Positions 4,948 through 8,146 are shown, counted from the stretch's first letter. The stretch: DNA of 64,000 nucleotides from a virus (IMGVR_UViG_3300046675_000234:17692-81691), one strand, 5' to 3'. Notes: generated from the sequence alone by a model not told the origin. A program made the numbers and translations.

Positions 4948-6788
4948 CAGGCCGCCTTGGCGCGGGCCTGCTTCTCCAGCTCGCCCGCCTCGGCCTTGCC
5001 AGCCGCCGCCCGGACCTCGGGATGGACGTGCCCGCCACCGCGCGACCAGCGCCGGATCGCGGCCCGCGCGATGGCGTACGCCTTGCCGGGCGGCATGCCG
5101 CGCTTCTCGATCAGCGCCTTGACGATCTGCTGCTCGTACGGGGTGTGGCCCATGCCCTTGACGTGGTAGAGCCCCGGCCCGCCGGGCTTGCCGCGCGGTG
5201 CTGGCGTGACGCTCAGCCTGCCGGTGTTGGCGCTCAGCTCGGTGGCCATCTGGACCTGCTTGCTGCGGGCCTGGGCCAGCACCGCCTGCGCCTTGTTGTG
5301 CTGCGGCCCGCCCTTGCGCAGCTTGCCGTACAGCTTCTGCTTGCGCGTGTCCCCGCCGAACACCTGCGTGAAGCCCTCAGCCTCGCGCTTGGACAGGTGC
5401 CTGCCGAAAGGGCCGGTGATACCCGGCACGCCGGTCATCGCCCGGTTGCGCTCAGCCTGCTTGCTGACGTGGACCCCCTTGCCGCTGCCCTTGGGAGCGA
5501 ACAGGTTCTGGAGGCCCTTCGCCTCACGGTGGGAGACGTGGCTGCCGACCATGGCCCTGGCAGCCGATCCGGGCTGGAACTCCCCGTGGCTGAGCTTGCC
5601 CTTCTCACCGGGCATGCCACCGCCCATGACCCCGGCCGCGTCCCGCAAGGAGCGCCTGATCTTGTCGGCCTCCAGCTTGATCCAGCCGTGCCGGTAGCGG
5701 AAGGCCAGCTCAATGGCGTTGTCTATGTTCTCCCAGGAGTACCCGATGGTGGTGGTCAGCTCGCCGGGGTGCCTGACCGTGGACGGGTAGTAGCCGGGGC
5801 CGTGCTTGATGCCGGGCTGGCCGGTGCCGATGGAGCGCGGTGCCCGCCAGCTCTCGTCCTGGGCGTAGGTGCCCCTCGGCACACCGGACAGGCTGCGGCG
5901 GATGCCGACGACAACGGCATGGCTGCCGGTGCCGCGTGTCGCGCGCTCCGCGACCGACAGGTGCACCCGGACGCTCTTCATGTCCCGCTCGCCCAGCGCC
6001 CGGCCTGCGTTGTGCAGCGCGTTCGCTGCGATATCGCTGGTTGACCGGACAGATTCCGCTGCTGCCATGATGGCCCGGATGTGGCCGAAGTCACCGGGCT
6101 TGCCGGTGTAGTCGAGTTTCTCCGACCGGGCGTGGTGGCCCGGAGCACCGCGCCGTGCCTGCTCCGAGACGCCCAGCGCCCGGACCAGCCCGGCCCGCTG
6201 CGCCATCCGCATGCTGGCCGTGTTCCGCATCATGCCGGGGATGCCCTGCCACCGGCCCCAGCGGTCGCGCGGCTGTGCCGGGTTGAACGCCAGCTCGACC
6301 GCCCCGCCGTCCTCGTTGGCGAGCTGCCGGATCTGGGTGGTGAGCGCGGCGATCATCTGGGTGATGATGGCCGCCGCCTCCTTGACGGTAAGAACATGCC
6401 CCTTGGCCGGGGCCTTGCCAGCCGGTGCCCCGGCCTTGGCCTGCTTAGCCGACGTCGCCGCCGCGCCCTTCTTGGCAGGGGTCGAGCTGGCCGACTTGCG
6501 GTGCACCACGGCCTTGCCGGTGGCTGCCGCCGTGGCTGCCCGCTGGGCCTGCCGGGCGGTGAGCTGGTTATGCTCCAGCTCGGCCAGGATCTTGCGCAGC
6601 GCCTTGATCCTGGCCGCCAGCGCGGCCTTCTTCTGCTGGCTCGCGGTCGGCGGCGGCTTGCCCTTGGCCGCTGGCTGGCTACCGGGCGGGGCGAACTGGC
6701 CGCCGGTAGCGGCACCGGCTCCTACGCGGGGCTGGGCCGGGTTGAACAGCTCGATGGCTAGCTCAACTGAGCCCCAGCCGGGAAAGGG
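4947..6788 (-). CDS. basic modular polyprotein; probable -1 frameshift extension of 6758-8146 (first in-frame start only at 6509)
   Basis: frame open from 7004 with no start codon until 6509, yet encodes SVELAIELFNPAQPR..GGQF upstream of 6509; K/R/A/G-rich. Confidence 0.75.
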   Translation of the reverse strand, partial: PFPGWGSVELAIELFNPAQPRVGAGAATGGQFAPPGSQPAAKGKPPPTASQQKKAALAARIKALRKILAELEHNQLTARQAQRAATAAATGKAVVHRKSASSTPAKKGAAATSAKQAKAGAPAGKAPAKGHVLTVKEAAAIITQMIAALTTQIRQLANEDGGAVELAFNPAQPRDRWGRWQGIPGMMRNTASMRMAQRAGLVRALGVSEQARRGAPGHHARSEKLDYTGKPGDFGHIRAIMAAAESVRSTSDIAANALHNAGRALGERDMKSVRVHLSVAERATRGTGSHAVVVGIRRSLSGVPRGTYAQDESWRAPRSIGTGQPGIKHGPGYYPSTVRHPGELTTTIGYSWENIDNAIELAFRYRHGWIKLEADKIRRSLRDAAGVMGGGMPGEKGKLSHGEFQPGSAARAMVGSHVSHREAKGLQNLFAPKGSGKGVHVSKQAERNRAMTGVPGITGPFGRHLSKREAEGFTQVFGGDTRKQKLYGKLRKGGPQHNKAQAVLAQARSKQVQMATELSANTGRLSVTPAPRGKPGGPGLYHVKGMGHTPYEQQIVKALIEKRGMPPGKAYAIARAAIRRWSRGGGHVHPEVRAAAGKAEAGELEKQARAKAA

Positions 6789-8146
6789 GGCGGCCCCATG
6801 GGGTTGGAGTAGCCCATCGGCGGGACCGCCGACCCGGCCTGGAACGAGCGGCCGATGCTGCGCGCGATGGCCAGCGCCTTGTTGTGGCTGTGCCCCTTGG
6901 CCCGCGCTGCCCGGTAGATGCGCTGCTGCCGGGCGGCTTCCTTCGCTATGGCCTTCGCCTTGTTGCGGCCCATCCCGGCGGCGTACTTGCCCGCGTCGGC
7001 GCGCTCATCGGCCAGCATCTTCGCCCGGCTGGTGGCCGGGGGCCTGCCCTTCGGGCCGACCGTCTTGGGCTGCGTGCCGTTCTCGAACCTGGCAGCAGCA
7101 CGCTCGATCCGCTGGACCAGGCCCGGCCCCTTCTTCTGCCGTGTCTCCAGCGGGAAGCCAGCGCCGCTGGCAGCAACCTCGGCCGCCGACCCGGCGTGCC
7201 ACGTCCCGCCGAGCTTGCCCCTGTTCGGCATGCCCGGAAAGTCGCCTATGACCGCGCCGTAGTCTGCGGCACCCCTCCCCGGCCTCACCTTCGCTGCTGC
7301 TCTCCTGGACGCGAGAGTCCCCTTGAATGCAGCGGTACTGCGATTGGCTCGTTCCACGGCTGCCGTCGCGGCCCGCTGACGCGGAGACACGCTGCCGCCG
7401 CCGTCGAGCCTGATCCAGCCGTGCCTGAAGCGGAACGCCAGCTCCAGGGCATCGAGCTGACTGGCGTGCTTGCTGCCGAGCTTGGCGAACCCCTTGCGCC
7501 CGTACTTCTTGCGCCCGATGTACGCGGCCAGCGCGCCGGGGTTGCGGGCACCGCGCTTGGCCAGCACGCCCTGGAGCTTGGCGAAGTTCTTGCCCGATCC
7601 CGGCTTGGCCCCGGCGAAGGTGGCCAGCTCGATCGCGTGCAGGTGCGTGTCCCAGCTCGCGGCGACGGCAACTGGCGGTGCTGCTCTCATGGCTCTCTCC
7701 TGATCCCGGACGTCGCGGCGGTGCTGGCCGATGGCGCGGTTGGACCCGTGCACGTCCTCGATGTCCTTGATCAGCAGCAGGTGCCGGTGCGCTTGCTGCA
7801 TCATCGCCTTGCCGCGCATGTGCCCGGCATCGTCGTGCACCCCGTGCCGCCGCAGTTGCAGCGGCTGGAGACCGAAGATCGCGGCGTTGACGTGTCGCTG
7901 GGCGCTGTGCGTCCGGCCCGAGTCCAGCTCGCGCGCCGCGTCCTGGAGGTGCTGGTGCACGTCCATCTCGGGGTAGGAGGTGGCCATGTTGGTGGCCAGC
8001 TTGCGCAGCCCGCTGCTGGCGCGGGCCTTCATCTCCCCGGTGGCGATCTTCCGGCTGAAGACGTGCTCGGGCTCAGGTCCCGGCGGCGTGGTCACAGGCG
8101 GGGCGTCAACGCCGATCGGCCGCTGGTTGTCTGCTGCTGCTGCCAT
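6758..8146 (-). CDS. basic modular putative internal head polyprotein
   Basis: ATG 8146 just after MuF stop; AIELA and ALELAFRFRHGW motifs; K/R/H-rich. Confidence 0.8.
   Translation of the reverse strand: MAAAADNQRPIGVDAPPVTTPPGPEPEHVFSRKIATGEMKARASSGLRKLATNMATSYPEMDVHQHLQDAARELDSGRTHSAQRHVNAAIFGLQPLQLRRHGVHDDAGHMRGKAMMQQAHRHLLLIKDIEDVHGSNRAIGQHRRDVRDQERAMRAAPPVAVAASWDTHLHAIELATFAGAKPGSGKNFAKLQGVLAKRGARNPGALAAYIGRKKYGRKGFAKLGSKHASQLDALELAFRFRHGWIRLDGGGSVSPRQRAATAAVERANRSTAAFKGTLASRRAAAKVRPGRGAADYGAVIGDFPGMPNRGKLGGTWHAGSAAEVAASGAGFPLETRQKKGPGLVQRIERAAARFENGTQPKTVGPKGRPPATSRAKMLADERADAGKYAAGMGRNKAKAIAKEAARQQRIYRAARAKGHSHNKALAIARSIGRSFQAGSAVPPMGYSNPMGPPPFPAGAQLS
6782..6788 (-). other. -1 frameshift slippery heptamer C_CCT_TTC
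   Basis: X_XXY_YYZ in the correct register; 6-nt spacer then GGGGCT..AGCCCC stem. Confidence 0.7.

Follow-up and report, generated by a model that had tools for sequence, protein, structure and literature searches.

Annotated ribosomal frameshifts of phages lie overwhelmingly in tail chaperone genes, which make up 2397 of the 2476 cases in the SEA-PHAGES set (PMC10885494). In the G/GT tail chaperone of lambda and most tailed phages, described by Xu et al. 2004 as cited in PMC10885494, a canonical slippery heptamer near the end of the upstream open reading frame (ORF) gives a short and a C-terminally extended structural-module protein, and the arrangement is conserved by position, not by sequence. 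A -1 frameshift in a head gene that provides two head components from one mRNA is known from T7 10A/10B and from Lactobacillus phage A2, in the account of Garcia et al. 2004 cited in PMC5009743. Here we analyze a 64,000-nucleotide stretch of an IMG/VR virus record (IMGVR_UViG_3300046675_000234:17692-81691, hereafter the window), in which two overlapping ORFs of the head module, ORF1 and ORF2, lie on the minus strand in a -1 relation. The record is an 81,691-bp metagenome assembly with direct terminal repeats, rated 100% complete, and window base 1 corresponds to genome base 17,692. Judging from sequence comparison, ORF1 and ORF2 very probably form one modular head-module protein gene that is expressed by programmed -1 ribosomal frameshifting. 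An initial annotation made from the DNA alone had proposed such a fusion and had called it unusual outside tail chaperone and major capsid/tail genes, a remark that fits the SEA-PHAGES figures.

The locus shares with the G/GT pair the heptamer near the end of the upstream ORF, the short and extended products of a structural module, and conservation by position; however, it is situated between the MuF and capsid genes, its 611-aa extension exceeds the upstream part, and a separate chaperone-like pair is present in the same genome. In the T7 and A2 systems, as cited, the frameshift adds a short tail to the major capsid protein, whereas ORF1/ORF2 is modular, carries no capsid fold signals and coexists with a separate phrog_1650 head protein. 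Bacterial dnaX tau/gamma and IS3-family orfA/orfAB (PMC4066793, PMC5009743) likewise combine an X_XXZ_ZZN heptamer of a class efficient in bacteria with a downstream hairpin. The present site differs from them in being C_CCU_UUC rather than A_AAA_AAG; no upstream Shine-Dalgarno (SD)-like stimulator is evident there, and an Rfam search matched no known RNA family or frameshift element at E <= 1. Polyvalent proteins and MuF-linked cargo (Iyer et al. 2017, PMC5512222; Jamet et al. 2017, PMC5576092) are similarly large, mosaic and module-shuffled and are encoded beside portal/MuF genes, but ORF1/ORF2 has no recognized effector or enzymatic domain, and within the MuF-side cluster only the next gene carries DUF7178. 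The polyvalent-protein paper mentions frameshifting 0 times (PMC5512222), and the PRFect study merely raises the possibility of frameshifting for MuF-like/VIP2 gene pairs (PMC10885494).

The locus presents a canonical recoding signal in a new gene family; we found no published description for this gene class. As far as sequence can tell, the features of a canonical -1 signal are all present: an in-register heptamer, an open -1 ORF that depends on it, a predicted downstream structure, a conserved layout and selection on the trans-frame. It adds to the -1 frameshifts of genes other than those for tail chaperones and capsids, as a well-supported example from the poorly understood proteins of the MuF-capsid interval. 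With its short site, it also lends itself readily to a reporter assay.

A slippery heptamer probably connects two reading frames

ORF1 (6758..8146, minus strand) starts with the ATG at 8146 and stops at the TAG at 6760-6758, giving a 0-frame product of 462 aa. Its last codons are ATG GGG CCG CCC CCT TTC CCG GCT GGG GCT CAG TTG AGC TAG, and its C-terminal residues read ..GPPPFPAGAQLS*. The slippery heptamer C_CCU_UUC (C_CCT_TTC in the DNA; 6782..6788, minus strand) lies in X_XXY_YYZ register over the codons CCC CCT TTC, with seven sense codons between it and the stop; codon reading thereby bears out the position and register given in the initial annotation. Among the 462 codons of ORF1 this is the only in-register X_XXY_YYZ (Y = A/T), compared with two in the 3864 codons of seven head genes and 14 in 163,380 frame positions genome-wide. 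When the codons of ORF1 were shuffled, at least one heptamer appeared in 3.7% of shuffles within the 82-codon overlap and in 0.4% within a 12-codon zone.

The last upstream stop in the -1 frame is at 7007-7005; from there the frame is open from 7004 to 4950 and stops at 4949-4947. No ATG, GTG or TTG occurs in it between 7004 and 6509, although it is continuous with a 520-aa ORF, just as the initial annotation had claimed. Read from the heptamer, the frame gives ..PFPGWGSVELAIELFNPAQPRVGAG.. and runs uninterrupted to 4950. The startless stretch (6510..6788, minus strand; 93 codons) comprises PFPGWGSVELAIELFNPAQPRVGAG.. and a basic helical segment. The first canonical start of this frame, the GTG at 6507..6509, would give the 520-aa product only, and initiation there would leave 250 nt of constrained coding sequence untranslated. 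A slip at the heptamer would instead add a trans-frame part of 611 codons plus stop (4947..6782, minus strand), with a conserved C-terminal domain (C-domain) at its end. The predicted products are 462 aa for the short form and 455 + 611 = 1066 aa for the long form, close to the roughly 460 and 1070 aa anticipated earlier.

In E. coli, the H_HH.U_UU.Y class, which covers C_CC.U_UU.C, counts among the -1 motifs of highest efficiency (Sharma et al., PMC4066793). The cassette is also rich in rare codons, namely CTA (2 of 258 Leu codons), TTT (7 of 99 Phe) and CCT (20 of 253 Pro); the CTA, located inside the downstream hairpin, creates both the TAG and part of the stem. Homopolymer runs are present as well, and RNA polymerase slippage on the C5 and T3 runs, or a slip at another nearby site, could in principle join the frames. 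Productive transcriptional slippage is known on runs of about 8-9 bases or more; the 5 C and 3 T here fall far short of such slippage-prone runs. ORF1 offers no further in-register slippery heptamer, and the alignment with P0005, an in-frame fused relative, puts the change of frame no more than a few codons from PPPF, which makes recoding of either kind extremely improbable.

A second in-register CCCTTTC is found at 5406-5412 (minus strand), where ORF2 encodes the conserved ..TGPFGRH.. motif. Slipping by -1 at this position would lead to a stop after about 10 codons and to loss of the C-domain, and the site is probably incidental.

The -1 frame is under selection upstream of any start codon

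Substitutions were counted between the window and its close relative L010, the two being ~98% identical over the 3.2-kb ORF1-ORF2 alignment. L010-L012 (the same contigs as L003-L005) come from other metagenomes in IMG/VR, and all three share the window's two-frame layout. Read in the -1 frame, the startless 279 nt contain 11 synonymous and 2 non-synonymous codon changes, whereas the 0 frame gives 1 and 13, and 12 of the 14 substitutions between the heptamer and the GTG at 6509 fall at -1-frame third positions. Downstream of 6509, ORF2 shows 10 synonymous versus 5 non-synonymous changes, and no stops interrupt it over 613 codons. The sole indel in the 3.2 kb is a 3-nt insertion directly after the heptamer, which keeps the -1 frame and adds one residue (PG-WG to PGNWG). 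By this comparison, purifying selection acts on the -1 frame starting at the heptamer. Because the substitution pattern follows the -1 frame, the indel preserves it, and the GTG from which the relative P0003 was called is GTA in the window, the startless stretch is, on this evidence, translated from the heptamer on, without a conserved start.

Alternatively, ORF2 might be translated alone, without any fusion protein, if ribosomes initiated at a non-canonical codon or reinitiated after termination close to the end of ORF1. Gene callers do use a GTG 12 nt before the TAG in L050, a more distant split relative, and in the P0010 contig, as well as a GTG at the 6725-equivalent position in L010-type relatives (P0003), and a separate small ORF, with a GTG as its possible start, encodes the C-domain in the distant locus L021. 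However, neither GTG is conserved, the window having TCA GTT and GTA there and L010 having ACG; a start at the GTG chosen for P0003 was rejected, as the window has GTA in its place and L050 lacks it. Nothing SD-like precedes either near-cognate codon, ATC 6755 or CTG 6749, the residues PG.WG.VE between the heptamer and such starts are conserved in the -1 frame only, and relatives read across the junction in one ORF. A non-standard start near 6770, raised in the initial annotation as a counter-explanation, is disfavoured for the same locus, where no conserved canonical start and no SD-preceded near-cognate start is found. Taken with these observations, separate translation of ORF2 is quite improbable.

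The gene callers thus split one gene and invent starts for its second part, with P0003 and P0010 beginning at non-conserved GTGs; the latter, encoded on the same 81,973-bp contig as the ORF1 homologue P0036, is an ORF2 homologue called from 'MVELAIELFNPAG'. As a result, the predicted 1066-aa head protein has been missed across a clade of ~80-kb soil phages.

The probable frameshift cassette is retained in diverged split relatives

The ORF1 homologues compared were P0028-P0036. L050 (Ga0210402_10064163), retrieved by a metagenome scan, encodes the homologue P0032, which has 50% identity to ORF1 overall and other internal modules. Its junction reads ..GGGGCCGCCCCCTTTCCCGGTGAATGGGGCGTGGTTGAACTAGCCATCGAGCTGTTCAACCCGGC.., and the heptamer, the register, the hairpin and the TAG position are all the same as in the window; its -1 frame continues as PFPGEWGVVELAIELFNPAG.., with strong divergence after. 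Conservation of the heptamer in relatives, a check proposed with the initial annotation, is borne out in these contigs: the heptamer is identical in the window, L010-L012 and L050, which also have ..GCCGCCCCCTTTCCCGG.. and GTTGARCTAGCCATCGAGCTGTTCAACCCGGC in common, together with the 0-frame TAG (6758..6760, minus strand), the end of the short product, at the same place. Between heptamer and hairpin, the three lineages read PG-WGSVE, PGNWGTVE and PGEWGVVE in the -1 frame, a conservative series, and PAGAQLS, PVTGARLN and PVNGAWLN in the 0 frame, where the changes are erratic.

At the protein level, P0029, P0030, P0032, P0033, P0034 and P0036, drawn from Joint Genome Institute (JGI), Logan and ENA assemblies, end 3-8 residues past PPPF. 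Full-length ORF1 homologues range from 370 to 643 aa with varied modules, and P0036 (289 aa) is without the N-terminal part. A scan of 1.84 billion cluster representatives, clustered at 50% identity, with the last 100 residues of ORF1 recovered five clusters, 3 split and 2 fused. A search of viral contigs by DNA pattern yielded none beyond the three known relatives, no relative of the junction peptide was found in prokaryote genomes (prophages), and 50,697 records of cultured phages gave no match by blastn of the locus or tblastn of the N- and C-domains.

An extra C in the C5 run (C6) would join the two frames exactly, and the sequence was assembled from a metagenome. The frame break might be an indel introduced by sequencing or assembly, with ORF2 really in frame, or a recent mutation that has left ORF2 dead. 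The same C5 run and layout, however, recur in five independent JGI contigs, namely the window, the three IMG/VR contigs from other metagenomes and L050 from another project, and the same protein ends are seen in the Logan and ENA assemblies. The 1-bp assembly error that the initial annotation had named as one of two refuting outcomes is therefore disfavoured. Inactivation is opposed by the purifying selection on ORF2 (11 to 2 before 6509, 10 to 5 after) and by its freedom from stops. Either event is a very remote explanation of the split.

Two further pairs, both available as protein only, have other arrangements. P0031/P0004 (ENA contig of 80,815 bp) goes out of frame after ..RPKRKGPG, with ~250 Arg/Pro-rich residues, which points either to another, different frame break or to a misassembled contig. 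In P0007/P0035 (contig of 80,880 bp), the ORF2 homologue P0007 starts at its own ATG, and an N-terminal zinc-ribbon-like segment (CxxC..CxxC) precedes the same junction (..AWSTHLRVIELFNPAQPR..), and its ORF1 partner P0035 ends ..GPLPFVLAGARYSTP.

Predicted downstream hairpin and proposed mechanism of the slip

The heptamer is followed by the 6 nt CCGGCT and then by GGGGCT..TTGAGC..GTTCAA..AGCCCC, in which the initial annotation had seen a plausible stem-loop. RNAfold indeed predicts a 15-bp hairpin here (6734..6774, minus strand), which contains the 0-frame TAG. As folded, it begins after a 7-nt spacer in the window and a 10-nt spacer in relatives. The hairpin is built from an outer stem of 5 bp, an inner stem of 7 bp (GUUGAGC/GUUCAAC) and a top of 3 bp (AGC/GCU). 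Its predicted energy is -21.7 to -31.7 kcal/mol, varying with the flanks given to RNAfold, and its z-score against dinucleotide shuffles is about -2.0 to -2.4. All three lineages keep the inner stem, in which a single G.U pair has become A-U. We infer that the hairpin stimulates the -1 slip.

In the proposed mechanism, a ribosome translating ORF1 would arrive at C_CCU_UUC, its P site occupied by tRNA-Pro paired to CCU and its A site by tRNA-Phe paired to UUC, while the 15-bp hairpin 7 nt downstream would resist unwinding. A fraction of ribosomes would slip by -1, the P-site CCU tRNA re-pairing to CCC and the A-site UUC tRNA to UUU. Ribosomes that do not slip would terminate seven codons on and release the 462-aa protein; those that slip would produce the 1066-aa protein with the junction ..GPPPF|PGWGSVELAIELFNP.., bearing the conserved C-domain. 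A programmed -1 frameshift with products of 462 and 1066 aa is favoured because the re-pairing would be perfect, the motif belongs to an efficient class and the cassette contains rare codons. Both products are presumably used.

Fused relatives and the evolution of the junction

Searching with a profile built on the C-domain of ORF2 retrieved 37 viral loci, and 24 distant ones among them were examined. In 23 of these 24, the ORF1 N-domain and the ORF2 C-domain are encoded in a single uninterrupted ORF of 406-1525 codons. The fusion of two ORFs by programmed -1 frameshifting, as initially proposed, is supported by purifying selection, the conserved cassette and the one-ORF distant relatives. Comparison of sequences alone establishes the signal with its register, the translation of the startless stretch, the retention of the cassette in diverged lineages and the single-ORF state of distant relatives.

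Only one of these distant loci, L021 (L021:3003-5262), has the two domains in separate frames: a 164-codon ORF, for which a GTG may serve as start, encodes the C-domain downstream of an ORF of 596 codons. It was rejected as a second frameshift case, the offset being +1 and the GTG start being available. By eye, the end of the 596-codon ORF gave an ADP-ribosyltransferase-like impression that Pfam did not confirm.

Among near relatives, P0005, P0006, P0061 and L031 are in-frame fusions of 1021-1069 aa with the same junction. The P0005 fusion reads ..NPGPPPFRAWDAVCGAIELA.., and P0006, P0061 and L031 read ..TPTGAAPFRVVELFNPAG.. there. L031 has the window's nucleotides GGGGCCGCNCCCTTTC, read in the window's -1 frame; relative to the window it carries one extra base just upstream and a C-to-G change in the C-run, and it is without the 24 nt that form the 5' arm of the hairpin and the 0-frame stop. 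In a tree of the N-domain, the split and near fused forms make up one clade (support 100/99) that is unresolved inside, and the distant members are all fused. Within this clade, 8 of the 10 members with a readable junction are split, and one further member is broken elsewhere. Since the two fusion types read G(P/A)(P/A)PF in different frames, the split form may have been their common ancestor or an intermediate. The split form and the two in-frame fusions (GPPPF-R.. and GAAPF-R..) offer a natural series for the interconversion of frameshift-dependent and fused genes.

The fused forms also bear on why the slip exists. The same -1 mechanism could be corrective, a 1-bp indel having become fixed beside a fortuitously slippery Pro-Phe pair, so that frameshifting rescues the full-length protein and the 462-aa form is a useless by-product; this account overlaps mechanistically with programmed frameshifting, and 'compensatory' frameshifting is a recognized class (PMC5009743). 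In its favour, CCCTTTC is already present in the fused L031, where it encodes plain Pro-Phe in frame, and the window differs by one base just upstream. The split state, on the other hand, is the majority of the clade by the N-domain tree and accounts for 3 of the 5 clusters at 50% identity, it survives the reshuffling of ORF1 modules in full-length proteins of 370-643 aa, and the hairpin and nearby stop go with the split and are absent from the fused form. We regard a purely corrective origin as unlikely, though clearly less so than separate translation of ORF2 or an indel.

Several observations count against programmed frameshifting. In view of the Pro-Phe codons of L031, part of the heptamer conservation may reflect protein constraint. 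Two related lineages make the fused form only, and the short product is therefore dispensable at least in fused lineages. The hairpin is only about 2 standard deviations above shuffles in stability, in a sequence of 70% GC; its three near-identical sequences amount to no real covariation, and the 10-nt spacer of the relatives is at the long end of usual values. With 0-1 synonymous changes in 11 codons, the cassette does not stand out clearly from the conserved protein-coding stretch directly upstream, where ~20% was counted by eye in the alignment, and any excess of synonymous conservation is not significant. P0005, P0030, P0033, P0034, P0035 and P0036 are known from protein sequence alone.

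Domains and junction motifs of the encoded protein

ORF1 contains a conserved N-domain (residues ~30-140) followed by variable modules, and ORF2 ends in a strongly conserved C-domain of ~100 aa, ..TPAPRGKPGGPGLY..IVKALIEKRGM..HPEVRAAAGKAEAGE... An AlphaFold2 model of the C-domain consists of three helices with a predicted local distance difference test score of 80-90 and has no significant fold match in PDB or BFVD; the single hit of a profile search against PDB was judged spurious. No Pfam or PHROG domain, and no recognized effector domain, was found in ORF1, ORF2 or the fused L031. When eight relatives were searched with Pfam, the sole match was a marginal PI3/PI4-kinase in L043. This fused member of 1351 aa (L043:7685-11737) matches Pfam PI3_PI4_kinase over a short segment (residues 1239-1274; E 1.5e-6), which may represent a kinase-like cargo module.

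A short motif, [AGSVTLH][IVLT][ED][LM][AS], recurs at the module junctions, for example as ..sW....AIELA.., often with NPxQPRDxxGRW or FRxRHGWI next to it. It occurs twice in ORF1 and four times in ORF2, where ~0.05 would be expected in each (~0.1 together), the pattern having been derived from the same sequences in which it was counted. Every protein encoded between MuF and the capsid gene contains it, with 12 hits against ~0.7 expected (323-8146 and L051:15965-17822, L051 denoting genome coordinates); the 400-aa protein before the capsid gene has three and, ORF1 and ORF2 aside, each other protein of the interval has one. The motif was not found in the terminase, portal, MuF or capsid proteins, nor in the capsid-flanking p168, p208 and p137. 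For the 400-aa protein, no Pfam or PHROG match was obtained even at E = 5 and no protease family could be assigned; its position and acidic C-terminal half are at most suggestive of a candidate prohead protease. As read from sequence, the distribution of the motif fits a processed, head-internal polyprotein with candidate cleavage sites: the recurrent x-[IVLT]-[ED]-[LM]-[AS] may be a processing site, and the ORF1/ORF2 protein may be packaged in the head.

The frameshift site immediately precedes one such motif (..PPPF|PGWGSVELA-IELF-NP..), and this placement makes a dosing role like that of Gag/Gag-Pol plausible. In retroviruses, a -1 frameshift before a processing site sets the module ratio; the likeness holds if the junction motifs are protease sites, and it is an analogy of logic only, as sequence and host are unrelated and processing of ORF1/ORF2 is only a candidate. 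We tentatively hypothesize that the frameshift acts as a stoichiometry switch for a capsid-packaged polyprotein in a tailed phage, with upstream modules made by all ribosomes and downstream modules plus the C-domain by slipping ribosomes only, a possibility that we hold to be rather doubtful. If the junction motif is a processing site, frameshifting would set the number of downstream modules per upstream module.

Two repeats were also noted in this region. The NPAQPR junction is repeated in the DNA, 6266-6298 and ~6725-6754 (minus strand) being 85% identical over 30 nt, and ELAFR[FY]RHGWI is duplicated between ORF1 and ORF2.

Genomic context of the head module

The GC content of the sequence is ~68-71%. 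The minus-strand gene order is terL-portal-MuF-ORF1/ORF2-DUF7178 protein. The head module begins with the large terminase (10311..12065, minus strand; Pfam Terminase_6N/6C, phrog_38/2), followed by a Mu-type portal protein (8825..10402, minus strand; Pfam Portal_Mu 4e-28, phrog_113) and a short MuF-like minor head protein, which adjoins ORF1 upstream (8151..8828, minus strand; Pfam Phage_Mu_F 5e-7, above the family cut-off). After ORF2 comes a multidomain protein of 1248 aa (1201..4947, minus strand; Pfam DUF7178 6e-35, phrog_3842), the start of whose gene shares one base with the ORF2 stop. Further downstream, outside the window, lie the 400-aa protein gene and then the major head protein gene (phrog_1650, 7e-72), beyond which are the tail genes, including one for a tape-measure-like protein of 1234 aa.

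The ORF1/ORF2 frameshift site is accordingly located between MuF (8828-8151) and the capsid gene, and the pair does not lie between the major tail and tape-measure genes, the location by which tail chaperones are recognized. Outside the window, at L051:8603-9321 in genome coordinates, the minus strand carries a separate pair of overlapping ORFs of 143 and 148 aa, which immediately precede the tape-measure-like gene (L051 8610-4906; 1234 aa). The first ORF of this pair has no canonical X_XXY_YYZ in register; the two ORFs stand in a -1 relation and resemble a G/GT tail chaperone pair.

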